DNA of 32,000 nucleotides from Crocosphaera subtropica ATCC 51142 (GTDB lineage: Bacteria; Cyanobacteriota; Cyanobacteriia; Cyanobacteriales; Microcystaceae), in NCBI RefSeq assembly GCF_000017845.1, contig NC_010547.1, positions 90,001-122,000 of the forward strand, in the 5' to 3' direction. Below, one piece after another: positions 12,026-29,712 of this stretch. A model generated the notes under the pieces. The model searched no databases. It was not told where the DNA came from and was given only the letters and a program-made list of their open reading frames with translations. A program made the translations under genes and the position numbers. Each line of letters starts with the position of its first letter. Within the stretch, counting starts at the first letter, position 1.

Positions 12026-12033
12026 GCTAGCGC
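12026..12033 (+). promoter_or_regulatory. GCTAGCGC island motif, copy 1
   Basis: 32 nt before the ATG at 12066. Confidence 0.6.
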
Positions 12034-12065
12034 CGATAAGGTAAAAGCTATAGAGGTAACATTAT

Positions 12066-15000
12066 ATGAACACCGAACAGATGTCTCTATTCGGGTTAGG
12101 AGAATCCACTGTACCGACCCAGAAACCAAAGAAAACTTCTCGTCGACAAAAGCGTAAGAAACGTTCTTCCGATACAAATTCTTCAACCACCCAAGGCTCA
12201 TTATTCAGTGGCCTATCTCTGGCTAGTCCAGTGATTGAGTCAGGAACTTTACTAATGGTAGCCGAAAAGCTGCTTTCCTATCTGTCGATTAATCAGAAAA
12301 TAACTTCAAGTTTACTAAAACAGACCATGAACAATACCTTTGGCGGTACAGATAGCCAAGGGCGTTGGACTTGGAAGCAAGCCTACAATGCAGTAGAACT
12401 GTCTTTAGTGTTATGGGTAAGGAAATACAACGCAAAACTTCCTGATAATCCAAGGAAAGCGAGCGCAAAACTTATCGAGTTACAAACCCTGTTACCGACG
12501 CATACTCTACGCTCTGAAGAATCGGTAAAACTTCAACAGTTCAGTACCCCTTTACCTTTAGCGTATTTAGTGGGTGAAGCGGCTCAAATCACCTCTACAG
12601 ATGTGGTCTTAGAGCCAAGTGCAGGCACCGGACTACTCGCCATTTGGACTGAGATTAAAGGAGCATCGTTAATTCTCAATGAAATTAGCGAGGAGCGAGT
12701 CGACTGCCTAAAGCAAGGCTTTTCACACAAAGTCCATAGCTACAATGCTGAACAAATCGATAACTTGCTCCCAACTCAGCATAAACCGACTGTGGTAGTT
12801 ATGAACCCACCGTTTACCACTTATCTCCACAGCAAGAAGAAGGGTTGTAGTGCAGCTTTTGCTCACATTCGTTCAGCCCTGCACCGACTCAATCCCGGTG
12901 GAAGATTAGTCACACTCAGCTTAGATTCGTTCTCACCCAATAGTACAACATGGGGCGACGCGATCGCTGACCTACCCGGCAAAGTCGTCTTTAGTGTTGG
13001 TATCGAAGGTAAGACCTACTATAAGCATGGCACAACCATCGATACGCGCTTAACGGTAATCGATAAGGTTGACGACGCAGACTCTTACATTGTCGACAAA
13101 TGCTTAAGTCTCGATGAAATCGCTGACTTGATTGACACTAAAATTCCCCCTCGACAAGAGGTTCAAAAGCGTCAGTCCTCTGTGGTGGTTCCTATCACGA
13201 AACCGACTCAGAGCAAGAAGACAAGAAAAGTCAAAGAAGATACAAGGCCAGAAGCAAAGGTATCTTTCGATGATGTCATTACCGTTGATTACAAAGTAGT
13301 TGATTGGCGAGATGAGGGTGAGTATCTCAATGATGATGGGATTTATGAGCGTTATATGCCTCAAACCATCAATATCAAAGCAGCTAAAGTTCATCCAACT
13401 AAACTCGTTGAATCCGCAGCAATGGCTGCGATCGCACCACCCACACCAACCTACAAACCCAAGTTACCCAAAGCGGTGATTGAGCAAGGCTTACTTTCCG
13501 ATGCTCAATTAGAGAGCGTTATTTATGCAGGGAACAGCCATGAGCAATTCTTACCCGATTGGTTCATGTATGACGCTGACCATGACACTTTAGAACGAGT
13601 TCCTGAAGGAACCAAAGAAGCTAAGCATTACCGCAAAGCTTGGTTTAACGGAGACGGTACAGGGGTAGGGAAAGGACGCCAGTGTGCCGGGATTATTCTC
13701 GATAACTGGTTGAAAGGTCGCAGGAAAGCGGTATGGATTTCTAAGAGCAACGCTCTACTAGAAGATGCACGTCGTGATTGGAAAGCCCTTGGTGGTGATC
13801 CGACCCAAGTTGTCCCTTTGTCTAAATTCAAGCAAGGAGATCCCGTTGTTCTCAACGAAGGGATACTCTTCTTGACCTATGCCACACTCAGAAGTCCTGC
13901 AAAAGCCAACAAGTGTTCTCGCGTTGAGCAAATTGTACAGTGGCTTGGCGAAGATAGTGACAACGTGATTGTCTTCGATGAATCCCATGCCATGGCCAAT
14001 GCAGTAGCAGAATATGGCGAACGAGGACTGAAAGCAGCCTCTCAACAAGGACTAGCAGGGCTACGTCTTCAACGAGTCTTAGCAAATGCGAGGTTTGTCT
14101 TTGTATCAGCCACAGGCGCAACTAAGTTAGAAAATCTCAGTTACTTAGAACGGCTAGGTCTCTGGAACTCAGAGATTTTACCCTTTATCAATCGAGAAGA
14201 TTTCTTATCCCAAGTTGCAGAGGGTGGGATTGCTGCTTTAGAAGTCGTTGCCCGCGACCTTAAAGCAATGGGTCTCTACTTGGCTCGTAGTGTTAGTTTC
14301 GATGGTGTCGAATATGAGATCATTGAACACGAACTGAACGACGCTCAAGTGGCGATGTACAACCGTTATGCCGATGCTTATCAGATTATTTACCAGAATA
14401 TTGAGAAAGCTCTTGAAACTACGGGAATCAGCAGCAAATTCGGCAACACTAATGGCAGAGCAAAATCCTCGGTCTATTCTCGGTTTGAAAGTTGTAAACA
14501 ACGGTTCTTCGGTCATCTGATTACCTCGATTAAATGCCCGACGCTTATCAGGCAGATAGAAGCGGATATGAAAGAAGGTAAAGCAGCCGTCATTCAACTG
14601 ATTTCTACCGATGAGGCCCTCTTAAACAGACGACTCGACGAAATTCCAGTCAGTCAGTGGAATGATATCAACGTTGATATTACTCCACGAGAATACCTCT
14701 TTGACTATCTTATCAATGGGTTTCCTGTCCATCAGTATGAGAGCTTCACAGATGATAACGGAAATGAGCGTAGTCAAATCATGAAAGATGAAGAAGGTAA
14801 TCCTATACCCTGTCAAGAAGCATTGCGTCAAAGAGATGCTCTTATTGAAGAACTTTCCTTGTTTCCACCTTTGCCATCGGCATTAGACCAAATCATTAAC
14901 CATTTTGGTTATGAAGCAGTGGCTGAAGTAACGGGACGCTCTAAGCGAATTATCCGAGTCACGAAAGAGGGTAGCGATCGCATGACGGTCGATAAACGAT

Positions 15001-16484
15001 CAAGCTCTGCAAACTTAGCCGAATCTCAGTTATTCATGGATGATGAGAAGCAGATTCTTGTCTTCTCTCAAGCCGGGGGAACTGGTCGATCATACCACGC
15101 TGATAAGAGCTGTAAGAATCAACGTCCACGGGTTCACTACCTCTTAGAAGGAGGCTGGCAAGCTGATGTGGCGATACAGGGCCTTGGGAGAACTAATCGC
15201 AGTAACCAAGCTCAACCTCCTTTATACCGTGTAATCTGCACCGACATCAAAGGTGAGAAACGGTTTACTAGCACTATAGCCAGACGCTTGGCTAGTTTAG
15301 GAGCCTTAACCAAAGGTGAACGCAAAACGGGCAATCAGGGACTCTTCCGAGAAGAAGATAACCTAGAATCAGTTTATGCGAGACAAGCCTTACGAAACCT
15401 GTATTTCAGTCTCTATAAAGGGCTAGTCGAGGGCATGAGTTTAGCAGAATTCCAGAGGATTTCAGGATTGAGTCTTCTCACCAAAGAAGGGGACTTCAAA
15501 AGTGAACTTCCCCCGATGAAAACTTTCCTCAATCGAGTCTTAGCCATGCGGTTAGGAGATCAAGAAATCCTATTTACGACGTTGGAGATGTGCATTAGCT
15601 CTGCCATCGAGAAAGCAAAAGAAGCAGGAATCTACGAAGTCGGTGTCGAAACCATCAAAGCAGAAAAGCTGAAAGTGGTTAAGCGACAACAACTCTATCA
15701 AGACCCTGTGACCGGAGGAACGAGTTACGCCGTTGAAATCCAGAAGACTGAACGTAATCGCATACTCAGCTTAGATGGAGCTATTGCACTAGGTAGTTAT
15801 AGTGACACCTTCTTCGCTAAGAACCAAATGTCTAATCAGGTTGCAGTTGTCGCTTCAACCACCAGCGTAGTCAACAAAGATGGTATCAGCGAACCAAGAG
15901 TCAGCTTAATCCGTCCTTGTAGCACTACCAAGATGCGACGTTGGGAATTCGATAACTCACTTTGGTACAAAACAGACGTTGAAACCTTTAAGCAAGGATG
16001 GCAACGGCAAATCGCTAAAGAACCTGAGTTCATCGAATCCACTTTCTACCTGATTACGGGGGTTCTCTTACCCATTTGGAAACGACTCGACAATAACCAG
16101 ATGAGGATTTACCGCATTCACACCGAGGACGGTGAGCGGTTATTAGGTCGTGCTGTCAGTGAAAGCGCCATGACCTATATCGCCAGAAGCTTTGAGTTGA
16201 GCCACGAACGAACCATCGAGGACATTTACCAAGCAGCGATGACCGATGGAACTTCAGAGCAATTGACTCAGAAATTGCAACTGAGAAAAGCATTGGTGAG
16301 AGGGGATTATCGCCTTGAACTACTAGGTTACGAATCTTCTACTGAACTGCAATGGCTCAAACAACTAGGTGTCCAAAGCGAATACGTTAGCCATAAACTC
16401 CGTGCTTTCGTACCCCTAGAAAACGCGATTGCCGTTCTCAAAACCATCCAAGAATCCTATCAAAGAACTGATCGCTTCTCCTGA
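12066..16484 (+). CDS. Fusion protein: N6-adenine DNA methyltransferase domain plus strawberry-notch (Sbno)-type SF2 helicase plus large C-terminal domain
   Basis: MTase motif I VLEPSAGTGLLA and motif IV VVMNPPF. Sbno-type Walker A WFNGDGTGVGKGRQCAGIILDNWLKG, DExH VIVFDESHAMAN, SAT VSATGAT, motif VI QGLGRTNRSNQ. Confidence 0.88.
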   Translation: MNTEQMSLFGLGESTVPTQKPKKTSRRQKRKKRSSDTNSSTTQGSLFSGLSLASPVIESGTLLMVAEKLLSYLSINQKITSSLLKQTMNNTFGGTDSQGRWTWKQAYNAVELSLVLWVRKYNAKLPDNPRKASAKLIELQTLLPTHTLRSEESVKLQQFSTPLPLAYLVGEAAQITSTDVVLEPSAGTGLLAIWTEIKGASLILNEISEERVDCLKQGFSHKVHSYNAEQIDNLLPTQHKPTVVVMNPPFTTYLHSKKKGCSAAFAHIRSALHRLNPGGRLVTLSLDSFSPNSTTWGDAIADLPGKVVFSVGIEGKTYYKHGTTIDTRLTVIDKVDDADSYIVDKCLSLDEIADLIDTKIPPRQEVQKRQSSVVVPITKPTQSKKTRKVKEDTRPEAKVSFDDVITVDYKVVDWRDEGEYLNDDGIYERYMPQTINIKAAKVHPTKLVESAAMAAIAPPTPTYKPKLPKAVIEQGLLSDAQLESVIYAGNSHEQFLPDWFMYDADHDTLERVPEGTKEAKHYRKAWFNGDGTGVGKGRQCAGIILDNWLKGRRKAVWISKSNALLEDARRDWKALGGDPTQVVPLSKFKQGDPVVLNEGILFLTYATLRSPAKANKCSRVEQIVQWLGEDSDNVIVFDESHAMANAVAEYGERGLKAASQQGLAGLRLQRVLANARFVFVSATGATKLENLSYLERLGLWNSEILPFINREDFLSQVAEGGIAALEVVARDLKAMGLYLARSVSFDGVEYEIIEHELNDAQVAMYNRYADAYQIIYQNIEKALETTGISSKFGNTNGRAKSSVYSRFESCKQRFFGHLITSIKCPTLIRQIEADMKEGKAAVIQLISTDEALLNRRLDEIPVSQWNDINVDITPREYLFDYLINGFPVHQYESFTDDNGNERSQIMKDEEGNPIPCQEALRQRDALIEELSLFPPLPSALDQIINHFGYEAVAEVTGRSKRIIRVTKEGSDRMTVDKRSSSANLAESQLFMDDEKQILVFSQAGGTGRSYHADKSCKNQRPRVHYLLEGGWQADVAIQGLGRTNRSNQAQPPLYRVICTDIKGEKRFTSTIARRLASLGALTKGERKTGNQGLFREEDNLESVYARQALRNLYFSLYKGLVEGMSLAEFQRISGLSLLTKEGDFKSELPPMKTFLNRVLAMRLGDQEILFTTLEMCISSAIEKAKEAGIYEVGVETIKAEKLKVVKRQQLYQDPVTGGTSYAVEIQKTERNRILSLDGAIALGSYSDTFFAKNQMSNQVAVVASTTSVVNKDGISEPRVSLIRPCSTTKMRRWEFDNSLWYKTDVETFKQGWQRQIAKEPEFIESTFYLITGVLLPIWKRLDNNQMRIYRIHTEDGERLLGRAVSESAMTYIARSFELSHERTIEDIYQAAMTDGTSEQLTQKLQLRKALVRGDYRLELLGYESSTELQWLKQLGVQSEYVSHKLRAFVPLENAIAVLKTIQESYQRTDRFS

Positions 16485-16490
16485 TTTCTA

Positions 16491-16530
16491 AGAACAGGCT
16501 ACTTCGGTAGTCCCTGTTCTTATTCTTTTT
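16491..16530 (+). terminator. Rho-independent terminator
   Basis: AGAACAGG...CCTGTTCT stem with inner CTAC-TTCG-GTAG, followed by TATTCTTTTT. Confidence 0.75.
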
Positions 16531-16538
16531 GCTAGCGC
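16531..16538 (+). promoter_or_regulatory. GCTAGCGC island motif, copy 2
   Basis: Abuts the terminator T-tract; 36 nt before the ATG at 16575. Confidence 0.6.
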
Positions 16539-16574
16539 AAAGCTATTTCAGAAAACCTATCGCACTTAAAAATC

Positions 16575-17750
16575 ATGGATATATCCTGCATACCCACCGG
16601 GCTAATCAAAGCCTTAAGCCTAGCTAATAAAGTGATTCCTCATAACCCCACCCACCTAATCCTACTCAATGTCATTCTAAAAGCTGAACCCGAAATCCTC
16701 AAAGTAGAGGCATTTAATGGGCAGATAGCAATGAGTTGGACAGTGAGAGATGCTAATATCAACACCCCTGGCGAAGTGGCAGTGAATTGCAAAGATTTCC
16801 TCACCTTACTTAACAGCCTTAAAGACGAGGTAGCGATTACACTATCCTCTGACGAAGAATATCTTTACTTGAAAAGCCAACAAGGAAAGGAGGCAAAATT
16901 TGCTAAAGGGGATATCGAAGAAATGCCTTGGATTGACTCCCTGACAGAAGAAGAAATTGAACAAGTCTCCATAGAAGCTGATGATTTAATCCAAGCAGTT
17001 GAAGAAACAAAATACGCTGCAGCTACCGAGATGACCAAGGCTATTTTATGCGGTGTCTGTCTAAACTTCGATACCGACGAAGAAAACACCGTAGAATTCG
17101 CAGCGACGGATGGGCATCGATTAGCTAGGACAAGAGTATTGTACGAGCCTTCGGAGAATACCCCAGGAAATAAACTCGTCATGCCAACCGAAACACTTAC
17201 CCTAACCACTTATGCGCTGAAACAGATGGAAACCAGTGAAGAAATTGCTGAAATGGTGACAATCAGCTTTGACGAAAGCAAAATCCAAGTGGATTTTTCA
17301 GAAGGGTTTATCCGAAGTCGTAAGTTAGACGGGAAGTACCCAGACTACGAAATGTTAATCAACGGTGATGATTTTAGCCTGGACTGTACCTTTAAGCGCA
17401 AGCAACTCCTTGAGGCTCTGAAGTTCATCGATACGTTCGCCGTTGGTAAAGATTCCTTATGTTTCATCGATTTCGTCCCAGAAGAGAAGAAATGCACCCT
17501 TCGCTCAAAGGAAAACACGACAGGGAGTGCCGAAGATACTTTAGAGGTCGAAGATATCAATGGGCAAGCTCAGTCTTTAGGCTTCAACTCCAACTACCTG
17601 AAACAGTGCCTCAAAGCGATGCCCGGAGATACTGTAACGATGGAAATCACGGAAACAACGGGTGATCAACCTGGTCCTGTTTTCGTATCGCCCTCCGAGG
17701 AATACAAAACCTTTGGGTTAGTCATGCCAATTCAAATTAACGAAAGCTAG
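16575..17750 (+). CDS. dnaN: DNA polymerase III beta sliding clamp homolog (divergent, element-encoded)
   Basis: 391 aa, clamp length. Contains the hallmark FAATDGHRLA, a three-domain-sized architecture and an acidic composition. Confidence 0.8.
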   Translation: MDISCIPTGLIKALSLANKVIPHNPTHLILLNVILKAEPEILKVEAFNGQIAMSWTVRDANINTPGEVAVNCKDFLTLLNSLKDEVAITLSSDEEYLYLKSQQGKEAKFAKGDIEEMPWIDSLTEEEIEQVSIEADDLIQAVEETKYAAATEMTKAILCGVCLNFDTDEENTVEFAATDGHRLARTRVLYEPSENTPGNKLVMPTETLTLTTYALKQMETSEEIAEMVTISFDESKIQVDFSEGFIRSRKLDGKYPDYEMLINGDDFSLDCTFKRKQLLEALKFIDTFAVGKDSLCFIDFVPEEKKCTLRSKENTTGSAEDTLEVEDINGQAQSLGFNSNYLKQCLKAMPGDTVTMEITETTGDQPGPVFVSPSEEYKTFGLVMPIQINES

Positions 17751-17803
17751 AAATAAAAATGCTACTCCTTTGCGGGGGTAGCTTCGCCACTCAGGAGAGG
17801 AAA

Positions 17804-18154
17804 ATGTTCGACAATTTAAGTGAAAAACAATGCGACCTGATAATATCAGGTATAGTGTCTATTGCCATATTGACATTTGTTGCTTACAGCACCATAAAGG
17901 CGAATGAACGGGAAAAACGGCTTGAAAGCGAAGCCTATATGATAGAACGGCCAGAAAGAACGTTACTGATTAACGGACTGCAAAAAGAAGAAATCGATCA
18001 GTTAAACAGCGATGCTTTGTTAGGTTTAGGACCGACGGGGATAATTATATCATGTGGTTCACAAGAATTCCGATTCGGACGAGCTACAGACTACTATCTC
18101 CAAAAAGTTCCATCCAATTATCAGATACCGAACAATGTAATCGATTGTCGTTGA
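17804..18154 (+). CDS. Hypothetical single-pass membrane protein
   Basis: ATG at 17804 is preceded by SD AGGAGAGG. TM segment IISGIVSIAILTFVAY. The track start at 17759 lies inside a hairpin. Confidence 0.55.
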   Translation: MFDNLSEKQCDLIISGIVSIAILTFVAYSTIKANEREKRLESEAYMIERPERTLLINGLQKEEIDQLNSDALLGLGPTGIIISCGSQEFRFGRATDYYLQKVPSNYQIPNNVIDCR

Positions 18155-18173
18155 TCTTCGTTACATCGAGCGT

Positions 18174-18204
18174 AGCTACTCCTTCGAGGGGTAGCTCTTT
18201 TTTT
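18174..18204 (+). terminator. Rho-independent terminator
   Basis: AGCTACTCC-TTCG-AGGGGTAGCT stem followed by CTTTTTTT. Confidence 0.8.
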
Positions 18205-18312
18205 CGCCCAGAACTGATGTCGAAGTTTTGGCACAAGTTAATTTTGAGGTAGTAAAAATGAAGGACCAGAATGTCATCATTGATGCTCTCCGCACTTATA
18301 GTGCGAAAAGCA

Positions 18313-18870
18313 TCAAAGTATTCGAGATCGCAAAGCGCTTGACGTTCTGGGGAGTCCACAAGTTTCAAGGTGTAAAATTACTTCCTTGAGTGTTCTAGGA
18401 GGGTTCTTTAAGCTCAATTGAAGCCTGATTAAAGCCTCCAATACACCGTCTTCGTTTTGAGATAGTAGTTCTAAAATAAAGGTATCTGGGTCAACGGGGT
18501 CTATTCCATAAGGAGTTAGCAAAGATTTTGGAAAATCGGAAAGATTGAAAGTCACTAAAAAGTCACTTCTTGACTGGATTGCTGCTGCGAGTACGTGCCT
18601 GTCATTTGGATCAGGGAGGGTAAGATTGGGAATAAGCCACTCATGTCCAGTAACGAGAGCGTCGGGCATTGCACGGAACATGAGGTCTCTTGTTCGAAGT
18701 ATGCGATTTTTGGAAAGCTCCGCTCTATCACGAAGAAGAGAGCGTACCCATTCATCGTGGATTTCAAGAGTCCATCGAGGAGAAAAGACTTTCTGAGACG
18801 CAATACGAAGAAGAAAATCCCGTAGTGCAGCAGAATAAAGCACGTTGGCATCTAAAGTGGCTATGATCAA
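18313..18870 (-). CDS. PIN-domain ribonuclease toxin (VapC-like)
   Basis: N-terminal LDANVL, central DPNDRHVLAAA, and DFLVTFNLSDF acidic residues typical of PIN. Sits 2 nt downstream of the HTH partner. Confidence 0.8.
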   Translation of the reverse strand: MIIATLDANVLYSAALRDFLLRIASQKVFSPRWTLEIHDEWVRSLLRDRAELSKNRILRTRDLMFRAMPDALVTGHEWLIPNLTLPDPNDRHVLAAAIQSRSDFLVTFNLSDFPKSLLTPYGIDPVDPDTFILELLSQNEDGVLEALIRLQLSLKNPPRTLKEVILHLETCGLPRTSSALRSRIL

Positions 18871-18872
18871 AG

Positions 18873-19337
18873 CTAGAAACCAAGTTTCATATCCTGAGTC
18901 TGTTCTGTAAGCTCATCTAAAATTGACTCCCGGCGTTGGAATTCCTTTTCTTTATAGGCTAGGACGTCTTGCACCTTGACACGACGATAGACACCAACTT
19001 TCCTAGAAGGAATTACTTCTTGGTCTAAAAGCTGGTTTAGGTAAGGTCTAGAGACACTTAGAATATTAGCTGCCTCTTGGGTTCCTATCTCTGCTTCCTG
19101 TGGAATCAGGCTTACTGTCTCTCCGTGACTAATAAGTCCAAGTACCTCAACAATGAATTGAAATACCGAACTAGGTAAGGTTATTTCCACACCAGGGTTT
19201 TTTGGGTCAGTAAGCGTAAAAGTAAGAGAATGCGGAGGTTCGTCGCTGATTTTAGACAGACTTTCAATAGCGTCTGAAGCAGACTTTATTTCTTCAGGTG
19301 TTGGGCTAAAAAGCTGTAATGATTGACGATTGGCCAT
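18873..19337 (-). CDS. Excisionase/MerR-type HTH antitoxin partner of the PIN toxin
   Basis: TQEAANILSVSRPYLNQLLDQEVIPSRKVGVYRRVKVQDVLAY is an HTH_17-like motif. The internal ATG at 19337 (MANRQSL) is preferred over the track start at 19436. Confidence 0.75.
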   Translation of the reverse strand: MANRQSLQLFSPTPEEIKSASDAIESLSKISDEPPHSLTFTLTDPKNPGVEITLPSSVFQFIVEVLGLISHGETVSLIPQEAEIGTQEAANILSVSRPYLNQLLDQEVIPSRKVGVYRRVKVQDVLAYKEKEFQRRESILDELTEQTQDMKLGF

Positions 19338-19439
19338 AAATATTCCCACTATATGTTTTTCCCCTTTTCCTAGTATATCACTTAGACGAAACACACGCAA
19401 CGGAAGAAATAGCCGAAATGAAGTTATTGGATACAATAC

Positions 19440-19447
19440 GCTAGCGC
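19440..19447 (+). promoter_or_regulatory. GCTAGCGC island motif, copy 3
   Basis: 31 nt before the ATG at 19479; TACAAT lies immediately upstream. Confidence 0.6.
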
Positions 19448-19478
19448 ATTTTTACTTGATATAACAGTCAGAATTAAA

Positions 19479-19688: not shown

Positions 19689-19695
19689 GTAAACA

Positions 19696-19703
19696 GCTAG
19701 CGC
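19696..19703 (+). promoter_or_regulatory. GCTAGCGC island motif, copy 4
   Basis: 32 nt before the ATG at 19736. Confidence 0.6.
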
Positions 19704-20047: not shown

Positions 20048-20058
20048 CCAGTAACGTA

Positions 20059-22028: not shown

Positions 22029-22059
22029 AATTAGGCTTAGCAAATATAAAGGATTGACG

Positions 22060-22569: not shown

Positions 22570-22577
22570 TCATTAAA

Positions 22578-22609
22578 AACCGAGTAATATTCTCGGTCTC
22601 TTTTTTTTT
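22578..22609 (+). terminator. Rho-independent terminator
   Basis: ACCGAG-TAATATT-CTCGGT followed by CTCTTTTTTTTT. Confidence 0.8.
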
Positions 22610-22638
22610 CTACACATTAAAACTAACTTGCTTCTTGT

Positions 22639-22646
22639 GCTAGCGC
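22639..22646 (+). promoter_or_regulatory. GCTAGCGC island motif, copy 7
   Basis: 34 nt before the ATG at 22681; SD AAGGAG lies between them. Confidence 0.6.
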
Positions 22647-22680
22647 GTCACCATAGCAAACCTTTAAGGAGCAATTACTT

Positions 22681-23043
22681 ATGCCAACAATTAGCCTAGA
22701 AAACTTCATCATTATTTCTCTTGCAGATACGGCAAGACGTGCGGGATTCGGAGATATGCCGGCGACCACAGACTATGAAAAAAAGAAAATATCACTTCAA
22801 GAGCGTATTATTCTAAAACGTTTACTTGATATGGTCAAAGATCGAAATCCTAGTAAAAACGTAGAAATTAATGAATTGTACCTCTCTCCACAATTTACGA
22901 TGCTGATTCTTGACTCCGTAAATCAGGTAGAAGGTTATAGCAACGATGTTTATCCTTGCCAGCATCTTGTTGAGTGCGAGAATCGACTGACTTTTCGGGG
23001 AAATATACAGGATATATATGATCAGGTTATCAACCATCTATAA
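22681..23043 (+). CDS. Hypothetical protein (120 aa)
   Basis: Clean ORF with a strong SD. Confidence 0.55.
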   Translation: MPTISLENFIIISLADTARRAGFGDMPATTDYEKKKISLQERIILKRLLDMVKDRNPSKNVEINELYLSPQFTMLILDSVNQVEGYSNDVYPCQHLVECENRLTFRGNIQDIYDQVINHL

Positions 23044-23068
23044 TCCTTATTGTACCTGGGTTTTCACT

Positions 23069-23118
23069 ATCCGCAGCAACTCCCATTTTGGTTATAGTTT
23101 ATGGACTCTGCTGCGGAT
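23069..23118. promoter_or_regulatory. IR-N30 element E1: ATCCGCAGCA-N30-TGCTGCGGAT with TATAGT at spacer positions 15-20
   Basis: 10-bp perfect inverted arms. Upstream of the 23247 gene and nrdB, which have no terminator between them. Confidence 0.6.
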
Positions 23119-23191
23119 CGCATACTAGCATTTTCTCCTCCGACATTTACCATAATGTACTTAAGTCTTCTAGTTTGGTAACAGTATCTAT

Positions 23192-23199
23192 CGCTAGCG
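23192..23199 (+). promoter_or_regulatory. GCTAGCGC island motif, copy 8
   Basis: 47 nt before the ATG at 23247. Confidence 0.55.
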
Positions 23200-23246
23200 C
23201 TCGTTAGGGGGAATAAATTGCCAAACGAGTAAAGGACTTTAAACAA

Positions 23247-23663
23247 ATGCCTAGAGAAGTTATCCATGACGTAGACCGCCCCGACATCAACGGTGTCAAG
23301 CCCAAGATGCAAGCGATCGCAGATAGTCTTCGTGAATCGCTGCCACCTCTGCCGTTTTCTTCTTTGAAATGCGATGACAACTTAATGTCATCAATTCATC
23401 TGAAAGCTAGTTTCAATGACCGAGCCGAGTGGTCACATGGGATTTTCGAGAACTCGCTGTACTTCATGGTTAGTATCCATCCCCAAAAAGGGAAACGGTA
23501 CTACCAAGAAGGTGAAAAGATCAGCATCGAAATCAACAACAAATCGTACAAAATTCCCACAAAGTTTAGAAAATACACGGGAACCCCGGAGAAGGCGATC
23601 GCCAAGATCGTCGAGTGGATTGAAAAAGCAAAGTCCGAATTAGAACAAAAGAACCAAGGCTAA
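23247..23663 (+). CDS. Hypothetical protein (138 aa), probably co-transcribed with nrdB
   Basis: Clean ORF. Neither a terminator nor the motif lies before nrdB, 48 nt downstream. Confidence 0.55.
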   Translation: MPREVIHDVDRPDINGVKPKMQAIADSLRESLPPLPFSSLKCDDNLMSSIHLKASFNDRAEWSHGIFENSLYFMVSIHPQKGKRYYQEGEKISIEINNKSYKIPTKFRKYTGTPEKAIAKIVEWIEKAKSELEQKNQG

Positions 23664-23711
23664 CACTTCTCAGAAAAAGTAAATTCACTGTACAAGTTAT
23701 CAGGAGCAACA

Positions 23712-24755
23712 ATGACCTTCACCGAAATAAAACCTAGTCCAATCTTCAACCCTACCGGAAAGGACAACAAAGAAAAGAGACACCTCTGGGGCGGTGATAC
23801 CACCAACGTTATCAACTTAAACGAAACCCGATACGGATGGGCACGAACAATTTACCAAACCATGAGGGAGGGGTACTGGATACCCCAGCGAACCGACCTG
23901 TCTCAAGACAAGCTTGACTACGTCAACCTGATTCCAGGTGAACGTAGAGCGTTGAAGGGCATCCTGAGTTATCTCAACTTCCTAGACTCGGTACAAGTCG
24001 CCAATATTCCCGAACTTAGTCGGTATATCACAGCGCCAGAAGCCAGGATGTGCCTTGCCGAGCAAACATCGCAAGAAGCGATGCACGGGGAGACTTATCA
24101 GTACATTACTGAGAGCATAATCCCAGAGAATGAACAACACGAAGTCTATGACTTCTGGAAAAAGGATCTTCTACTTAATGAACGCTGCGAGTTCATCGCA
24201 AGTTACTATCAAACACTTGCTGATAACCCTTGTGGCGAAACTTACTTCATGGCCCTAATTGGAGACTATCTCTTAGAAGGATTGCTATTTTATCAGGGGT
24301 TCTTGTTCTTCTACAACCTCGCCTCTAGCCAGAGGCTTGCGGGCTGTGCCAAGCTCATCAAACAAATCAACATGGATGAATTGACCCATGTGAGTCTGTA
24401 CCAAAAGCTTATCACAGAAGCTAAGACCAAGTTCTCTTACTCTGAGGATGAAATCACAGAGTTGTTCGTCAACACGGTTGAGAAGGAAATCGAGTGGACG
24501 AACCACATCTTTGATGGGCAAATCTTAGGTGTTAGCGAAGCGAGTACCGAAGCTTATACCAAGTACCTAGCCAACTTACGCCTGAAGGCAATCGGCATTT
24601 CTGCCATTTACCCCGAAGTAGAGAATCCTTATGCTCATTTAGACTGGGCTGACTTCAAAGGAATCGGGAAATCAAAGGCTGCTTTCTTTGAAACAGAGGT
24701 CACAGGTTACGCCCAACCTACTGCCGTAAAAGGATGGGAGAAACTCAGAGTCTGA
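23712..24755 (+). CDS. nrdB: Class Ia ribonucleotide reductase beta (R2) subunit
   Basis: Di-iron/tyrosyl signature EAMHGETYQY (His then Tyr at +4), EGLLFYQGF and MDELTHV ligand motifs. 347 aa. Confidence 0.9.
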   Translation: MTFTEIKPSPIFNPTGKDNKEKRHLWGGDTTNVINLNETRYGWARTIYQTMREGYWIPQRTDLSQDKLDYVNLIPGERRALKGILSYLNFLDSVQVANIPELSRYITAPEARMCLAEQTSQEAMHGETYQYITESIIPENEQHEVYDFWKKDLLLNERCEFIASYYQTLADNPCGETYFMALIGDYLLEGLLFYQGFLFFYNLASSQRLAGCAKLIKQINMDELTHVSLYQKLITEAKTKFSYSEDEITELFVNTVEKEIEWTNHIFDGQILGVSEASTEAYTKYLANLRLKAIGISAIYPEVENPYAHLDWADFKGIGKSKAAFFETEVTGYAQPTAVKGWEKLRV

Positions 24756-24769
24756 CTGGCTTAGAGGCT

Positions 24770-24817
24770 TCCGCAGCAAGTTCAATATTTCTTATAGAAA
24801 ATGGACTTTGCTGCGGA
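24770..24817. promoter_or_regulatory. IR-N30 element E2: TCCGCAGCAA...TTGCTGCGGA with TATAGA at spacer positions 15-20
   Basis: Starts 15 nt after the nrdB stop. Followed by a degenerate motif, ACTAGCGT, at 24829-24836. Confidence 0.55.
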
Positions 24818-25090
24818 TCTAATCGTGAACTAGCGTTTACTACAGGGACATTAAGCTTCGATAAAATTATTAGCAGCTATCCCTGTACGAGGTATCATAG
24901 ACTATCATGCGCGTTTTGCGTCTTGAGAGATCTCAACGACCTGACCAACTCAACTCCTTACGATGAGGGTGTTTACCAAGAGTTAGTGGCATTTAAGAAA
25001 GTCTCTGGCTGGAGCTTCCAGCAAGGGCGATCGCTTTCCTCACTCCGCTGGCGCTTGTTTTTGAAACGGTTTTAAGGAGACTAAGAAAAT

Positions 25091-25597
25091 ATGAAAATAG
25101 CTACAGGACTATTTGGGTATTTTGGCGCAGTCGCATTGTCCTTTGGGACGATATTACCAGGACTAGGCATCATCACCACTATCTTAGTGGCAATATGTCA
25201 ATTACCTTTTGGGATTGTCACTACCATAGAATTTGGGTTTCTTTTCCCACTTCTTGGGTTAATGGCAATCGCCTATCTATTCATGGGGCGGCTCTTATAC
25301 TTCCTTGGATTAGCGACTGCTGCAATGGGGTCTATCCTAGGAATTTACTATTTGTCTTTAGACAAAACATTGGACGAGTGGTTACTGAATGCACCTCTCC
25401 AACCCCTTGACCAACTTCACCCTTTGGAGGGTTTGCTAATGCAGGAGTTGGTGGTGGGAAGCGATAACACGGCTATGAGGATCGGGATTCACTTCCTAGT
25501 TGCCACGTTCTCCTGGATAGGAATTGGCTTATCGTCTCTGTTGATGGCGATATTTCTTGAAGAGGTAAACTCTTTAATGGGGTGGGAAAAGAACTGA
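25091..25597 (+). CDS. Hypothetical polytopic membrane protein (168 aa)
   Basis: 4-5 hydrophobic helices; SD AAGGAG 8 nt upstream. Confidence 0.6.
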   Translation: MKIATGLFGYFGAVALSFGTILPGLGIITTILVAICQLPFGIVTTIEFGFLFPLLGLMAIAYLFMGRLLYFLGLATAAMGSILGIYYLSLDKTLDEWLLNAPLQPLDQLHPLEGLLMQELVVGSDNTAMRIGIHFLVATFSWIGIGLSSLLMAIFLEEVNSLMGWEKN

Positions 25598-25723
25598 GCA
25601 TATTATTCTATTCCATGCAGGGATAGGAGATTCGGTAATGGTCTTGGGAACTCTCCTATGAATTGCAAGGGCATTGTTTCCCGATGCTTTTCCCAAAGAG
25701 CTTTTGGTGGTAATGTCTGTTCT

Positions 25724-25871
25724 TTTATGTCGCATCATCGTCAAAATCAAAGACGAAAAACTGGCTTAGTTAAGGGCATACTGAAACAGCTTCTATCTCA
25801 GTCTGGATAAGGATTAGAGTAATCCGCAGCAGGTACTATTTTTCTTATAAATAAACGTGGTTGCTGCGGGT
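25724..25871 (+). repeat. ~145-bp leader repeat, copy A (contains IR-N30: CCGCAGCA 25824-25831 / TGCTGCGG 25862-25869, TATAAA in the spacer)
   Basis: Alignable with copies B, C and D over the whole length. Confidence 0.7.
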
Positions 25872-25888
25872 GAAAATCGGGTCAAAAA

Positions 25889-25896
25889 GCTAGCGC
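25889..25896 (+). promoter_or_regulatory. GCTAGCGC island motif, copy 9
   Basis: 32 nt before the ATG at 25929; 19 nt after the IR right arm. Confidence 0.6.
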
Positions 25897-25928
25897 ATCT
25901 GAGGATGATATTCAAAACCATAACGCAC

Positions 25929-26141
25929 ATGAGCAACTACGAAAAACTTCGAGATTTAGTCAGTGAGTGCAATCGTCTAGAGGAAAATTTCTTCGACCGT
26001 CTAATTCAAGAAGACGTACCCCTAGAACTGAAAATGATTTGGAACGAGTGGTCGGCGGCGCGAACTAAGCATAGAACCTTTCAAGGTCAAATGCTTGGGT
26101 TCAACATCCTAGACACCGAAACTCACAACGAAGTCGAATAA
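25929..26141 (+). CDS. Small hypothetical protein (70 aa; MSNYEKLRDLVSECNRLEENFFDRLIQEDVPLELKMIWNEW...)
   Basis: Start set by motif spacing. The track GTG start at 25857 lies inside the IR right arm. A decayed paralog is at 26781-26948. Confidence 0.55.
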   Translation: MSNYEKLRDLVSECNRLEENFFDRLIQEDVPLELKMIWNEWSAARTKHRTFQGQMLGFNILDTETHNEVE

Positions 26142-26164
26142 TAAAGAGATATTCTTTTAGAAAT

Positions 26165-26190
26165 GAGAAGCTATGTCTTCTCTTTTTTTT
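26165..26190 (+). terminator. Rho-independent terminator
   Basis: GAGAAG-CTATGT-CTTCTC followed by T8. An identical hairpin recurs at 26980-27003. Confidence 0.85.
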
Positions 26191-26333
26191 GTCGAATCAA
26201 GGTCGAATTTCAGCACGAAAATTCTACCGAGTTTAGGGCATTATAAACAAAGCTGTATTTCAGTCAGACTAAGGATCATAAGTATCCGCAGCAACTGCTA
26301 TTTTTCTTATAAATAAACGTGGTTGCTGCGGGC
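26191..26333 (+). repeat. ~145-bp leader repeat, copy B (IR arms 26286-26293 / 26324-26331)
   Basis: Same element. The downstream motif is degenerate (GCTAGAGC at 26396). Confidence 0.7.
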
Positions 26334-26537
26334 GGACATTTAGCGGTACTCAAGTCAATCTAGTTATCCTCCAACACGAAAACTTAATAAAGACCGCTAG
26401 AGCTTTTTCGGAGGATGTATTCTAGACAAACATCATCCCTTACCTTTGCCGATTGTAGTTTTCAGAATGCTCCGAACTGGGAACCGAAGACCAAGGGAAT
26501 GCCAAACGTAGGAGAGGTAGCTCAGAGCAGCTACTTA

Positions 26538-26572
26538 GGGAAGCCAAGTCCAATGCTTCCCTCTATTTTTTT
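26538..26572 (+). terminator. Rho-independent terminator
   Basis: GGGAAGC-N10-GCTTCCC followed by TCTATTTTTTT. Confidence 0.75.
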
Positions 26573-26573
26573 G

Positions 26574-26715
26574 CCAAATCAAGGTCAAATTTCAGCACGA
26601 AAATACCGTTAAGTTTAGGGCATTATGAACAAAGCTCTATTCTAGTCTGGATAAGGATTATAGCCATCCGCAGCAACTACTATTTTTCTTATAAATAAAC
26701 GTGGTTGCTGCGGGT
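26574..26715 (+). repeat. ~145-bp leader repeat, copy C (IR arms 26668-26675 / 26706-26713)
   Basis: Same element. The downstream motif is degenerate (GCTACCGC at 26732). Confidence 0.7.
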
Positions 26716-26780
26716 AAACTTCGGGCTTTAAGCTACCGCTTAGAATGAAGATGTTTACACCCTAATAGTAAGTAGAACAA

Positions 26781-26948
26781 ATAAGTCAATACGAGAAATT
26801 GAGAGAATTAGATGAGGAGAATAGTCAGCGAGAAAAAGAATTTTACATCCGTCTGATTCAAGACGATGTTCCTGTAGAACTTAAAATGCTCTGAAACAAA
26901 TGGGCTAACGCACGAAGGGAATATCATGATCTCAATTTAAAATACTAA
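26781..26948 (+). pseudogene. Decayed paralog of the 25929 small gene (start ATG to ATA; Trp TGG to TGA at 26892)
   Basis: The frame reads ISQYEKLRELDEENSQREKEFYIRLIQDDVPVELKML*NKWANARREYHDLNLKY*, parallel to MSNYEKLRDL...LIQEDVPLELKMIWNEW. Confidence 0.65.
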
Positions 26949-26979
26949 AAACTCTTCCCTAAGATAAACCTCCCAAAAA

Positions 26980-27003
26980 GAGAAGCTATGTCTTCTCTTT
27001 TTT
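26980..27003 (+). terminator. Rho-independent terminator
   Basis: GAGAAG-CTATGT-CTTCTC followed by TTTTTT. Confidence 0.8.
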
Positions 27004-27148
27004 CTGTTGAATCATCGACGAAATAGAACACGAAAATACCGTTAAGTTTAGGGCATAATGAAACAGCCTCTATCTCTGTCTGGATAAAGATTATAGCCAT
27101 CCGCAGCAACTACTATTTTTCTTATAAATAAACGTGGTTGCTGCGGGT
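27004..27148 (+). repeat. ~145-bp leader repeat, copy D (IR arms 27101-27108 / 27139-27146), upstream of nrdA
   Basis: Same element. Confidence 0.7.
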
Positions 27149-27166
27149 CTAAATCATAAGTCGGAA

Positions 27167-27174
27167 GCTAGCGC
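27167..27174 (+). promoter_or_regulatory. GCTAGCGC island motif, copy 10
   Basis: 34 nt before the ATG at 27209; 20 nt after the IR right arm. Confidence 0.6.
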
Positions 27175-27208
27175 TACCCAATCTGAAAATCAACTAATCT
27201 TAGAACTT

Positions 27209-28066
27209 ATGTCACCATCTGTAATCAAACGAGATGGCTCAGTTGCCAACCTCGATTTAAACGAGATCCGAGACGCGATCGCCTATGCCGTCGAAGGCTA
27301 CCCCTTGAATTCTCTGGAATTAGAATCAAGAGTTAATCTCCAACTTAATCAGCCTCGGACAACTAAGTTTATCCAAGAAACCTTAGTCAATACGGCTGTG
27401 CAATTAGCCACGCCGAAAGACCCGGAATGGCTCAACGTCGCAGGACGTCTCCATATCTGGAATTGGTCGCATGAAGTCATTGCCAAGCGAGGATACGGTT
27501 ATGGCCACTATGATGTTTTTGCTGATGAAAACTTGTTCTCTAAGTACACGAATCGACTGAAAGTATATAGCCAAGCTGACTTACAAGAAGCAGTGACCTG
27601 GATTGAACCCGAGTTGGACAAAGTATTTGACCATGCAGGAGCAACTCTCCTGACACAACGCTATTTAAGTGAAGATGAACTAATTCAAGAGGTCTTCTTA
27701 GTGACCGCTTTGGTATTAGCGATTCCAGAGCGAATGGACGAGCGATTGTCTTATGCCAGAGATTTCTACATGGCGATCGCTAATAGAAAGATTTCTTTAG
27801 CCACACCTATCTTAGCCAATCTTCGCTTTGAGGGTGGTTCTGGAACCAGTTGCTTTATCTTGTCAGTAGAGGACTCCATTGACTCTATCTTTGACAATGT
27901 AAAGAACACGGCACGGATTTCCCAGGAAGGCGGTGGCGTTGGGGTCAACCTCAGTCGAATCCGAGCAGTAGGCAGTTGGGTTCGCAATAAACCGAATGTC
28001 AGTGGCGGGCTGATGTCGTGGATTCGGATTTTGAATGATACGGCGATCGCAGTCAATCAAGGAGGT
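27209..28066 (+). CDS. nrdA: Class Ia ribonucleotide reductase alpha (R1) subunit, exon 1
   Basis: MSPSVIKRDGS start, GTSCFIL (Cys225-equivalent), GGGVGVNLSRIRA, ends ..AVNQGG. The track GTG at 27134 lies inside the IR arm. Confidence 0.85.
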
Positions 28067-28330
28067 TGAACTTTAGCCTCGGTATGCAGTAATGCCTACA
28101 AAAATAAACTCCTCTAATTGCTGGAAACTCTTGAAAGAGACAATCAGCAGCGAAGCCAGAGTAATCTGGAACGTTCATCGACTATCGCGCAAGCGAGTAC
28201 CCTAGAAGCGTCTGCTAGGGGAAATGGGGAGCTTCCCACCGGGAAGAAGATATAGTCAGTTCTTTGTGGTGACGCAAAGCAGTTCATAAGAGAACGGGGT
28301 AGAGAGTGGCGTCTCTACCTGAACATCAAG
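28067..28330 (+). ncRNA. Group I self-splicing intron (ORF-less, 264 nt) interrupting nrdA
   Basis: 5' exon ends in U. P1 pairs exon GAGGU (28062-28066) with intron GCCUC (28076-28080), including the U-G wobble. P7 pairs GACUA (28180-28184) with UAGUC (28253-28257), preceded by the core AAGAUAUAGUC. The last intron base is G at 28330. Exons join in frame to QGG-RRAGAVTV. Confidence 0.8.
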
Positions 28331-29659
28331 AGAAGAGCCGGCGCCGTAACCGTTGCCGCCGATATTTGGCACTTAGACATCCCTGAGTTCTTAGAAATGC
28401 GCTCCGAAGCGGGCGACCAACGCCGCAAAGCTTACGATGTGTTCCCTCAAGTGGTGGTAACAGACAACTTCATGCGGCGAGTAGAACAGGGAGCCGCTTG
28501 GACTTTAGTTGACCCCTACGAAGTAAAACAAGTTCTCGGAATCGACTTGCATAATCTCTGGGGAACCGAATTCGATGCTGCCTATGAGCAAATCGAAGAA
28601 GCGGTCGGTCTAGGTGAACTTACCCTAACCCAAACAGTAAATGCTCGGAACCTGTTCATTGATATTCTAGAAACCCAGGTGGAAACAGGCTTACCTTACA
28701 TTGCATTTAAGGATGCAATCAACCGAGCCAATCCAAATAAACACATTGGGATTATTCCCTCTGTCAATCTCTGCTGCGAGAGTTTCTCCGTAGTCGTTCC
28801 TGGAAAACTTGCCCATAGTTGTAACTTAGCCTCGGTGAACCTTGCCCAAGTTGAAGATGATGAATTGGCAGAGATTTGTCAGTTAGTCGTGCGGTTGTTA
28901 GACAATACCATCGATGTGACGACCGCGCCAATTGGAGAAGCAAGGAATCACAACCGGAATTTACGGACCATTGGAGTAGGGGTCTTAGGCTTAGCCGATT
29001 ACTTAGCCAAGCGAGGACTCCGATATCAAGACAAGCGAGAAATCCGCGAACTATTCAAAGAGTTCTCCTATCAGTGCTTGATGGGGTCTGTTCTTCTCGC
29101 TAAAGAGCGAGGAAGTTACCCGGCTATCAATTCCAGTGAGTACGGGATGTTAGAAATTCTCGGTAAATCACGAAGCCAACGTCCTGAATGGAAAGCTTTG
29201 TATGACTTATTTGATTTCTACGGGATTCGTAACAGTCATGTCATGGCGATCGCACCGAATACGTCTTCTTCTCTCATCCAAGGATGTACTGCGTCGGTAC
29301 TACCGCCTTACGCATTATTTAATGCAGAAAGCTTGGGTAAAGGCGACGTCATGAAAGCTGTGCCTTTCCTCCGAGAGTACGGGGATAACTACCAGGAGAA
29401 TCAACGGTTAGAGCAGCGCATTGTCGTTGATGCGATCGCTGAGATGCAGAACTGGGTCGATACCGGAATCAGCATGGAATTGGTATTTAACCTAAATCCT
29501 GATGTTTATGCACTGAATAAAACTGTATATGCTTCTGATATCTATGATACTGCATTGAGAGCTTGGAGACGAGGGCTTAAAGCGATTTACTACATTAGGA
29601 CGGTCAAGGAAGATCGTCTAAGCGAAGTCGATGGTTGTGGCGACAGTTGCACTTTGTAA
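28331..29659 (+). CDS. nrdA: Class Ia ribonucleotide reductase alpha (R1) subunit, exon 2
   Basis: RRAGAVTVAADIWHLDIPEFL aligns with E. coli VRGGAATLFYPMWHLEVESLL. Active site NLCCES; C-terminal Cys pair CGDSCTL. Confidence 0.85.
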   Translation, partial: RRAGAVTVAADIWHLDIPEFLEMRSEAGDQRRKAYDVFPQVVVTDNFMRRVEQGAAWTLVDPYEVKQVLGIDLHNLWGTEFDAAYEQIEEAVGLGELTLTQTVNARNLFIDILETQVETGLPYIAFKDAINRANPNKHIGIIPSVNLCCESFSVVVPGKLAHSCNLASVNLAQVEDDELAEICQLVVRLLDNTIDVTTAPIGEARNHNRNLRTIGVGVLGLADYLAKRGLRYQDKREIRELFKEFSYQCLMGSVLLAKERGSYPAINSSEYGMLEILGKSRSQRPEWKALYDLFDFYGIRNSHVMAIAPNTSSSLIQGCTASVLPPYALFNAESLGKGDVMKAVPFLREYGDNYQENQRLEQRIVVDAIAEMQNWVDTGISMELVFNLNPDVYALNKTVYASDIYDTALRAWRRGLKAIYYIRTVKEDRLSEVDGCGDSCTL

Positions 29660-29666
29660 TTTCTGT

Positions 29667-29700
29667 GAGGGGGTCTGTGAGACCTCCTCGTTTCTTGCTT
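29667..29700 (+). terminator. Rho-independent terminator
   Basis: GAGGGGGTC-TGTGA-GACCTCCTC followed by a T-rich tail. Confidence 0.65.
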
Positions 29701-29704
29701 TGAC

Positions 29705-29712
29705 GCTAGCGC
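29705..29712 (+). promoter_or_regulatory. GCTAGCGC island motif, copy 11
   Basis: 35 nt before the ATG at 29748; SD AGGAGG lies between them. Confidence 0.6.

Follow-up and report, generated by a model that had tools for sequence, protein, structure and literature searches.

The octamer GCTAGCGC recurs at a set distance ahead of start codons in an 18-kb island (approximately 12.0 to 30.2 kb) of a 32-kb stretch of DNA (the window), which we take to be part of the linear chromosome of Crocosphaera subtropica (Cyanothece) ATCC 51142. From its placement, its association with intrinsic terminators, and its conservation in relatives, we infer that this octamer is probably, though by no means certainly, a core promoter element that lacks a -35 element and would restart transcription at each unit of a block derived from a mobile element. 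The octamer is non-random and under strong purifying selection.

A pattern search finds 11 exact copies of GCTAGCGC in the window, all on the + strand and spanning positions 12026 to 29712 (Table 1), and no copy of the reverse complement, GCGCTAGC, on that strand. In 100 dinucleotide-preserving shuffles, the mean count was 0.50 and the maximum was 3. These numbers bear out an earlier reading made from the same DNA without database searches (the sequence-only reading), which listed 11 + strand copies and expected fewer than one by chance; a single coordinate changes, from 23192 to 23193. The claim that the octamer is confined to the 12- to 30-kb region also stands, as it is absent from positions 1 to 12000 and 30200 to 32000. 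It is likewise absent from ~35 kb of further host-type DNA of relatives (the flank of locus L001 and loci L013 and L014). The hexamer GCTAGC occurs 12 times in the window, in 11 cases within the octamer.

Nine of the 11 copies end 31 to 36 nt before the next + strand start codon, and the other two end 46 and 47 nt before it (not both 47, as previously given). Such gaps are possible at only ~1% of the positions in the island, counting both strands, and non-coding DNA accounts for only 19% of its length. All copies are intergenic, as had been stated, although the public gene call for the open reading frame (ORF) at 19670-20047 would put the copy at 19696 within the coding sequence. The start codons at 19736, 22060, 25929, and 27209 were chosen in part by means of the motif, a circular procedure. 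For two of them there is support from elsewhere: the ATP-cone domain of Pfam starts at residue 4 in the 27209 model, and 22060 is also the start in the public gene call.

The syntenic island of C. chwakensis CCY0110 (L001) contains 10 exact octamers, all co-oriented with the genes, and four further copies in relatives are also intergenic and gene oriented. The counterpart of copy 1 is an exact octamer at the orthologous place in both L001 and the metagenomic locus L018, whose helicase is 68% identical; in L018, an exact octamer is found upstream of the clamp gene as well. Two more metagenomic relatives, L028 and L029, carry the exact octamer upstream of clamp genes that are only 65% and 43% identical, respectively. 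Orthologous genes whose products are 92%, 68%, 65%, and 43% identical are all preceded by an exact octamer in otherwise divergent flanks, and degenerate copies in the window precede decayed genes, which together argue for purifying selection on the octamer itself. In a five-locus alignment of the region upstream of the clamp gene, the block TTTTGCTAGCGCAAAG is invariant, the leader has diverged, and the stem of the terminator shows compensatory substitutions. The distance from octamer to ATG across loci ranges from 28 to 47 nt. The L001 ortholog of the copy-4 site has a one-mismatch form, GCTAGCTC, 33 nt ahead of the ATG. Relatives with a ParB protein that is 87 to 88% identical but with other inserts upstream of parA lack the octamer, indicating that the motif travels with the island and not with the locus; the island and the motif are both absent from two further relatives.

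Comparison of the window with L001 shows that whole cassettes have been swapped or inserted between octamers. The place of the copy-6 cassette is taken in L001 by an unrelated octamer-gene-terminator cassette. The 138-aa gene and the gene for the small subunit of ribonucleotide reductase are contiguous in the window, with no octamer between them; in L001, an octamer-gene-terminator cassette is inserted at this point, and the small-subunit gene bears its own octamer right past the terminator of the inserted cassette. As judged from these sequences, the insertion may be viewed as a natural experiment, in which an octamer was apparently gained where a new terminator intervenes.

This arrangement is typical of the island as a whole, which is a mosaic of units made up of an octamer, a short leader, one to several genes, and an intrinsic terminator. 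Terminator-like sites number 31, versus 16.7 in shuffles; the strong + strand ones are located just after genes, and the hairpins consist of ordinary GC stems followed by T-tracts. Across the window and L001, 11 of the 12 + strand terminators that precede a + strand gene have an octamer next. In five non-redundant cases, the octamer begins 0 to 1 nt past the T-tract, which leaves no room for another upstream promoter element and makes a location within the 5' untranslated region (UTR) implausible. Shine-Dalgarno-like sequences (AAGGAG, AGGAGG, or GAGG) begin at least 20 nt past the octamer (for copy 7, AAGGAG starts 20 nt past it), so that the transcript would start within ~19 nt downstream of the octamer. 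Given these two limits, the octamer would occupy the -10 to -25 region of the promoter, whatever its type. Its frequent contact with the upstream T-tract and the position of the Shine-Dalgarno-like sequences ~20 nt downstream imply that the octamer acts on DNA, no more than ~25 nt ahead of the transcript start. An expression-linked cis element, as proposed in the sequence-only reading, is therefore supported by the unit architecture, by the strand and distance constraints, and by the exact conservation in diverged relatives. Of the two positions offered there, the one at or just upstream of the transcription start site (TSS) holds, whereas the one within a short 5' UTR is hardly tenable, since the octamer often abuts a terminator T-tract. 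The description of the motif as island-wide was slightly overstated, because at least one gene preceded by a terminator (ATG 20108) has no copy. Two other assignments were rejected. As a -35-like or MotA-box-like element of leaderless mRNAs, the octamer would set a start site that cuts the Shine-Dalgarno-like sequences ~20 nt downstream. As a downstream sequence that enhances termination, it would not be expected to lie 0 to 45 nt from the T-tract, to lack an upstream terminator in 5 of the 20 non-redundant copies, and to keep a tight distance to the ATG.

The same observations bear on the possibility that the octamer functions in the mRNA leader, where it might mark the processing of a polycistronic precursor, be bound by an RNA-binding protein, or enhance translation. 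Its strand specificity and fairly constant distance to the start codon would fit such a role, as would the four copies that have no upstream terminator, and the upstream hairpins could stabilise 3' ends after cleavage, as in phage T7. However, octamers that abut a T-tract would be transcribed only by read-through, copy 1 stands ahead of the first island gene, where there is no precursor to process, and a distance range of 28 to 47 nt is too loose for ribosome contact. The leaders, taken from the octamer to at least 30 nt into the gene, fold no better than shuffles (z about 0), share no structure, and give inconsistent unpaired probabilities. There is no Rfam match to them, as only the group I intron described below passes the gathering threshold. 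An RNA-level element thus appears improbable. A described structured RNA family or leader was discarded on the same grounds, the intron being the only Rfam hit and no leader fold being shared, and pairing with 16S rRNA was discarded because it would involve only a 6-nt partial match in a buried helix.

The fine structure of the site was derived from a matrix of 20 non-redundant octamer sites. A pyrimidine is found 6 nt ahead of the octamer in all 20 sites, a T is found at the 4th nt past it in 13, and a purine is found at the 12th nt past it in all 20, usually preceded by a pyrimidine at the 9th to 11th nt past the octamer. Apart from these three positions, there is no conservation beside the octamer in this set. 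The clamp loci of L028 and L029 also obey the extended positional rules. The position matrix reveals neither mirror symmetry around GCTAGC nor palindromic arms, and the last two bases of the octamer (GC), which lie outside the palindrome, are as invariant as GCTAGC itself. This lack of symmetry, the invariance of the GC end, and the common orientation of all copies point to asymmetric recognition. The suggestion that a dimeric protein binds the GCTAGC palindrome is accordingly weakened by the invariant GC end, the absence of mirror conservation on the 5' side, and the single orientation.

These features also bear on a DNA signal unrelated to transcription, that is, a target of methylation or restriction, a primase or replication signal, or a cassette junction or target-site duplication. 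The island does encode an N6-adenine methyltransferase domain, as the sequence-only reading had recognized (it is supported by Pfam MTS and PHROG DNA methyltransferase matches and an NPPF motif), and the palindrome GCTAGC, which contains one adenine, is almost absent outside the octamer. The cassettes between octamers differ between the window and L001, and one relative has a family A DNA polymerase gene beside the helicase gene. Nevertheless, such a signal would explain neither the tight distance to the start codon nor the single orientation, and the two invariant 3' bases lie outside the palindrome; a methylation-sensitive site, in particular, does not account for the fixed distance. Homology breakpoints between the window and L001 are located 9 to 41 nt before an octamer or ~15 nt after it and never at the octamer, which disfavors a recombination site; nor is there an inverse-core partner GCGCTAGC on the + strand or an integrase in the island. 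A role of this kind is very unlikely. Integron cassettes with attC sites were rejected for similar reasons (no IntI integrase, no GCGCTAGC, ordinary terminator hairpins, and breakpoints off the octamer); a polar sequence of the Chi or KOPS type was also rejected, since Chi and KOPS lie mostly in coding DNA.

If the octamer is a promoter, it is not of the housekeeping type. Matches to the sigma-70 consensus number 23 in the island, versus 31.4 in shuffles, and none are systematically placed at octamer sites; in the matrix of 20 sites, neither TAnnnT nor TTGACA is found at a fixed offset from the octamer. The earlier statement that no sigma-70 -35/-10 pairing goes with the motif thus holds, and a sigma-70 housekeeping promoter was rejected because -35/-10 pairs are fewer than in shuffles and are not placed at octamers. 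In the proposed mechanism, the octamer would occupy the -10 or extended -10 region, with no -35 element, and transcription would probably start at a pyrimidine-purine step ~10 to 12 nt downstream of it. Each unit would then consist of the octamer, a leader of 17 to 36 nt, the gene or genes, and an intrinsic terminator. The extended signals (pyrimidine at -6, T at +4, and purine at +12 relative to the octamer) are consistent with promoter geometry. One might speculate that the T at the 4th nt closes a -10-like hexamer; the usual 7-nt distance would then lead to a start at the 11th or 12th nt. Asymmetric and very sequence-strict recognition would favor a single sigma-like or RNA polymerase-associated reader over a dimeric regulator. 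This reader may be an alternative sigma factor of the host or a factor of an ancestral phage- or plasmid-like replicon that is encoded outside the window.

Several points weigh against a promoter. The octamer is unlike any described -10 element, such as the TAGGC/GGTAA pair of cyanobacterial SigF promoters (PMC2532724). A literature search found no TSS map for ATCC 51142, and the island-only distribution of the octamer rests on ~50 kb of host DNA. The gene at ATG 20108, which encodes a 191-aa RTX-like protein, follows a good terminator (20059-20075) without an octamer. Searches of the island proteins with Pfam, PHROG, and NCBIfam at lenient thresholds, together with PDB sequence searches, revealed no gene for a sigma factor, an RNA polymerase, or an obvious DNA-binding regulator. 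A single helix-turn-helix protein (HTH_17) is encoded, as one half of a toxin-antitoxin pair for which L001 has a MazF-type pair instead, and so it cannot be the conserved reader. Finally, in a different element (L031, below), the core of a similar motif lies within a 14-bp inverted repeat and occurs in tandem, which is more operator-like. As no reader was found in the island, it would have to be a host factor or be encoded elsewhere on the replicon. Upstream of ATG 20108 (window 20047-20108), only GCTACAGT is found, 16 nt ahead of the start codon. The 169-aa protein (22060-22569) gives a sub-threshold match to PF16805, the T4 gp33 family (E value of 0.12; 12.7 bits versus a cut-off of 25); this match was taken as chance, being below threshold and belonging to a gene absent from L001. 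Single-sequence AlphaFold models had pLDDT values of only 40 (120-aa protein) and 57 (138-aa protein), too poor for use, and a fold search gave nothing below an E value of 1.

L031 represents a different cyanobacterial element, whose polymerase is 52% identical to a fragment encoded in L018. Ahead of three small genes in its region 8305-9643, ACTGCTA[A/G]CGCAGT occurs six times, and one of these copies holds the exact octamer. The copies lie 40 to 47 nt upstream of the three start codons, partly in tandem and beside a TAAAAAAT stretch. By a rough estimate, the chance that a repeated regulatory motif would match within one mismatch and in the same orientation is a few per thousand. It is plausible that the readers of the island octamer and of the L031 motif are related as a family. 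The polymerase aside, no protein is common to L031 and the island loci in hand. L031 also has five iteron-like repeats (CGACACATAATCTGCGA) at 3174-3313, with 31-bp spacing, adjoining an AAA ATPase gene.

Mainly because the L031 core is embedded in an inverted repeat, we keep as a serious rival the model in which the octamer is the operator of a global regulator, a site at which a repressor or activator would control all units while the real promoters are weak, host type, and overlapping. Its nearest parallels would be the monomeric immunity repressors and stoperators of cluster A mycobacteriophages or KorA/KorB of IncP plasmids. The L031 core GCTA[A/G]CGC sits within the inverted repeat ACTGC-N4-GCAGT, and its tandem copies, 69 to 75 bp apart and directly upstream of TAAAAAAT, are typical of an operator beside a -10 element. 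The island looks silent and integrated, which would fit repression, and asymmetric sites in short intergenic spaces, with an orientation tied to transcription, match the description of stoperators (PMC9283540). At the same time, no -10 (TAnnnT) or -35 consensus lies at a fixed distance from the octamer, no repressor candidate is common to the window and L001, and 8 bp is short for a stand-alone protein operator, stoperators being 13-mers (PMC9283540). Restarting after terminators is predicted by a promoter but not by a roadblock. The operator model therefore retains a minor but appreciable probability. Operators of the KorA/KorB type, which are palindromes of 12 to 13 bp recognised by a dimeric regulator or a ParB-family protein of the element, were rejected, as the octamer has no palindromic arms and the adjacent ParB is 87 to 88% identical in relatives that lack the octamer.

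A bolder version of the promoter reading sees in the octamer what survives of the promoter code of a phage- or linear-plasmid-like replicon that gave this block to the Cyanothece/Crocosphaera linear chromosome and had a private, -35-less transcription system. The reader would be an unrecognised sigma-like factor, encoded elsewhere on the linear chromosome and perhaps coupled to the sliding clamp of the island, as happens in T4 late transcription. The octamer would then define a new class of cyanobacterial promoters. We consider this version doubtful.

One-mismatch octamers on the + strand are few in number, and one of them, GCTGGCGC at 25047, is probably a functional twelfth site that the sequence-only reading did not list; AAGGAG lies between this variant and the ATG, and all three extended positional features are present. 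The degenerate copies GCTAGAGC and GCTACCGC, which that reading had placed before a pseudogene or no convincing gene, lie within duplicated, decayed versions of a 172-nt module and of the 70-aa gene (25929-26141). The module forms four tandem-like repeats across 25699-27147, spaced by 382 to 462 nt, and two of the four bear a degenerate octamer and a decayed copy of the 70-aa gene. By its sequence, this array looks like a recent duplication and decay of an octamer-gene-terminator cassette. The window also has a 51-nt element, ATCCGCAGCAAC...GTTGCTGCGGAT, in which a stem of 11 to 12 bp encloses an AT-rich loop of ~25 nt and which lacks a T-tract. All six of its copies in the window are found after a gene, 20 to 125 nt ahead of an octamer or degenerate octamer, and it is also present in L001 at ~20540. 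It might serve as a terminator of a second kind or as a stabiliser, or it might be a small mobile repeat.

Table 1. Octamer sites and associated features of the island, in coordinates of the 32-kb window
Feature	Position	Strand	Gap from octamer to start codon (nt)	Downstream gene and remarks
Octamer copy 1	12026..12033	+	32	ATG 12066; helicase/methyltransferase fusion gene, 1472 aa; left edge of island, no terminator upstream
Octamer copy 2	16531..16538	+	36	ATG 16575; beta sliding clamp, one unit with 116-aa gene at 17804-18154; directly abuts T-tract of terminator 16497-16512
Octamer copy 3	19440..19447	+	31	ATG 19479 (69 aa); divergent from opposite-strand VapC/HTH_17 toxin-antitoxin pair
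Octamer copy 4	19696..19703	+	32	ATG 19736 (103 aa)
Octamer copy 5	20692..20699	+	47	ATG 20747 (190-aa RTX-like calcium-binding repeat protein); unit extends through 21410-21700 and 21720-21923 to double terminator 21929-21982
Octamer copy 6	22021..22028	+	31	ATG 22060 (169 aa)
Octamer copy 7	22639..22646	+	34	ATG 22681 (120 aa); terminator 22579-22597 precedes
Octamer copy 8	23193..23200	+	46	ATG 23247 (138 aa, PHROG 3308); unit includes ribonucleotide reductase small subunit, 23712-24755
Octamer copy 9	25889..25896	+	32	ATG 25929 (70 aa); ~20 nt past one copy of the 51-nt long-loop hairpin repeat
Octamer copy 10	27167..27174	+	34	ATG 27209; ribonucleotide reductase large subunit
Octamer copy 11	29705..29712	+	35	ATG 29748 (126 aa); strong terminator 29665-29691 precedes; last unit, closes at terminator 30138-30155, right edge of island
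One-mismatch variant GCTGGCGC	25047..25054	+	36	ATG 25091 (168-aa membrane protein); probable twelfth site
Degenerate octamers	26396..26739	+		GCTAGAGC at 26396, GCTACCGC at 26732; no intact gene downstream
Extended signature	12020..29724	+		Three positions around each octamer
Intrinsic terminators closing units	16497-16512, 18174-18196, 20059-20075, 21929-21954, 21962-21982, 22579-22597, 26165-26182, 29665-29691, 30138-30155	+		
51-nt element copies	23069-23119, 24769-24819, 25822-25872, 26284-26334, 26666-26716, 27099-27149			

According to a published genome comparison (PMC3187577), CCY0110 is the only strain with synteny to the linear chromosome of ATCC 51142. The island is flanked on the left by host genes (hemB, cobW, a WD40 protein gene, znuABC, and a flavin oxidoreductase gene) and on the right by parA-parB, and nearly all of its genes are on the + strand. 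Its 1472-aa protein is a helicase of the strawberry-notch type fused to the N6-methyltransferase domain. Other products include a divergent beta sliding clamp, two RTX-like repeat proteins, and many small unknown proteins. The gene for the large subunit of ribonucleotide reductase consists of two exons (27209-28069 and 28397-29659), split by a group I intron at 28057-28396 (Rfam RF00028, 82 bits) without an evident homing endonuclease ORF. The toxin-antitoxin pair (18313-19394), made up of a VapC-PIN toxin and an HTH_17 antitoxin, accounts for all opposite-strand genes of the island; the same place in L001 (16277-16854, also on the - strand) is occupied by PemK/MazF and a 77-aa partner.

The HIP1 palindrome, GCGATCGC, occurs 17 times in the window, mostly within genes, and 13 of the 17 copies lie inside the island. 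Its frequency inside the island equals that outside, suggesting that the island is of cyanobacterial origin or a long resident. The island has a G+C content of 0.44, versus 0.38 to 0.40 outside, and is not compositionally foreign, given its HIP1 content. A HIP1-like repeat was rejected as an explanation of the octamer: GCTAGCGC is non-palindromic, restricted to one strand and to intergenic DNA, and absent from the host flanks. In L018, a family A DNA polymerase gene (73-861) is located directly upstream of the helicase-methyltransferase gene, and an insertion sequence (DDE_Tnp_4; 7119-7787) follows the clamp gene. The nearest non-trivial relative of the clamp is located in a phage-like contig. 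This relative and the polymerase neighbor in L018 indicate that the island is best regarded as belonging to a phage-like or plasmid-like replicative element. The earlier reading did not recognise the block as a conserved, phage- or plasmid-derived segment of the ATCC 51142 linear chromosome. From the gene order, the island in the window seems to be a truncated version of a larger element of this kind. The region upstream of parA-parB (window 30160-30447; also L013, L014, L170, and L171) is a variable hot spot, occupied in close relatives by an integrase/Prim-Pol island, an insert with sigma-70 and PIF1-helicase genes, or an acetyltransferase gene.

In phage and plasmid collections, Megablast found no match to the island. 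In k-mer counts, high-GC alphaproteobacterial elements with a helicase homologue had no analogous motif, and among cyanobacterial plasmids with dnaN paralogues, the replication cluster of pP742402 was without such a motif. Exact scans of viral contigs with ACTGCTAACGCAGT and TTTTGCTAGCGCAAAG gave only single chance matches and no arrays; nothing came out of a metagenome scan with the reductase small subunit or of viral contig scans seeded with the protein sequences of the clamp, the 191-aa protein, and the polymerase fragment or with the helicase alignment. A literature search for the octamer string returned cloning primers only.

Should the octamer prove to be a minimal promoter that has its own dedicated reader, it would be a new, very compact, and orthogonal expression signal in a diazotrophic model cyanobacterium and a candidate part for synthetic biology. 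It would also offer a handle on the switching or silencing of the mobile-element-derived block of the ATCC 51142 linear chromosome, which includes a second sliding clamp, ribonucleotide reductase, and the helicase-methyltransferase. If it is only the operator of a conventional regulon, it would be an ordinary though neat case of element-wide control.

A short promoter or operator code that serves a whole element is of a known kind; new here are the sequence, the setting on a cyanobacterial linear chromosome, and the missing reader. The late promoters of phage T4 (TATAAATA) are read by gp55 together with gp33 and the gp45 sliding clamp. Like them, the octamer is a sole 8-bp element that has no -35 partner and is repeated before many units, its -10 position being deduced from the flanking sequences only, and a sliding-clamp gene is found in the same gene block. 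However, the octamer is GC rich and the T4 element is AT rich, the sequences are unrelated, and no homologue of gp55 or gp33 reaches the threshold in Pfam, PHROG, or NCBIfam. The island clamp is of the bacterial beta type and not gp45, and the likeness does not imply a link between clamp and transcription.

Promoters of the FliA type (sigma-28) have an 8-bp -10 element, GCCGATAA. These and other group 3 sigma promoters resemble the octamer in having a long, GC-containing, and strictly recognised -10-region element for an alternative host sigma factor. Cyanobacterial SigF promoters have TAGGC at -32 and GGTAA at -12 (PMC2532724). The octamer matches neither consensus and has no -32/-35 partner and, in contrast to the sites of sigma-28 regulons, the octamers are concentrated in one island, as far as ~50 kb of host DNA shows.

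In cluster A mycobacteriophages, stoperators are 13-mers to which a monomeric repressor of the phage binds, and they block elongation (PMC9283540). They share with the octamer a short asymmetric site, present in many copies in short intergenic spaces (11 co-oriented copies in the window, 10 in L001, and 4 further ones). The octamer differs in its length of 8 bp, in the absence of a repressor gene from the island, and in being found after terminators, where transcription must restart.

Very short exact motifs located tens of nucleotides before ORFs, as seen in this block on a linear chromosome, are also known from the linear cytoplasmic killer plasmids of Kluyveromyces lactis, which have the upstream conserved sequence ATNTGA, and from yeast mitochondria, which have a nonanucleotide promoter; in both, the motif serves a private transcription apparatus. 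These eukaryotic cytoplasmic or organellar systems encode their own RNA polymerase, whereas none is seen in the island. Phage morons are promoter-gene-terminator units, normally with varied sigma-70 promoters. The island units are similar to morons in being independent cassettes that are gained, lost, and swapped between relatives but differ from them in that every cassette bears the same non-sigma-70 octamer.

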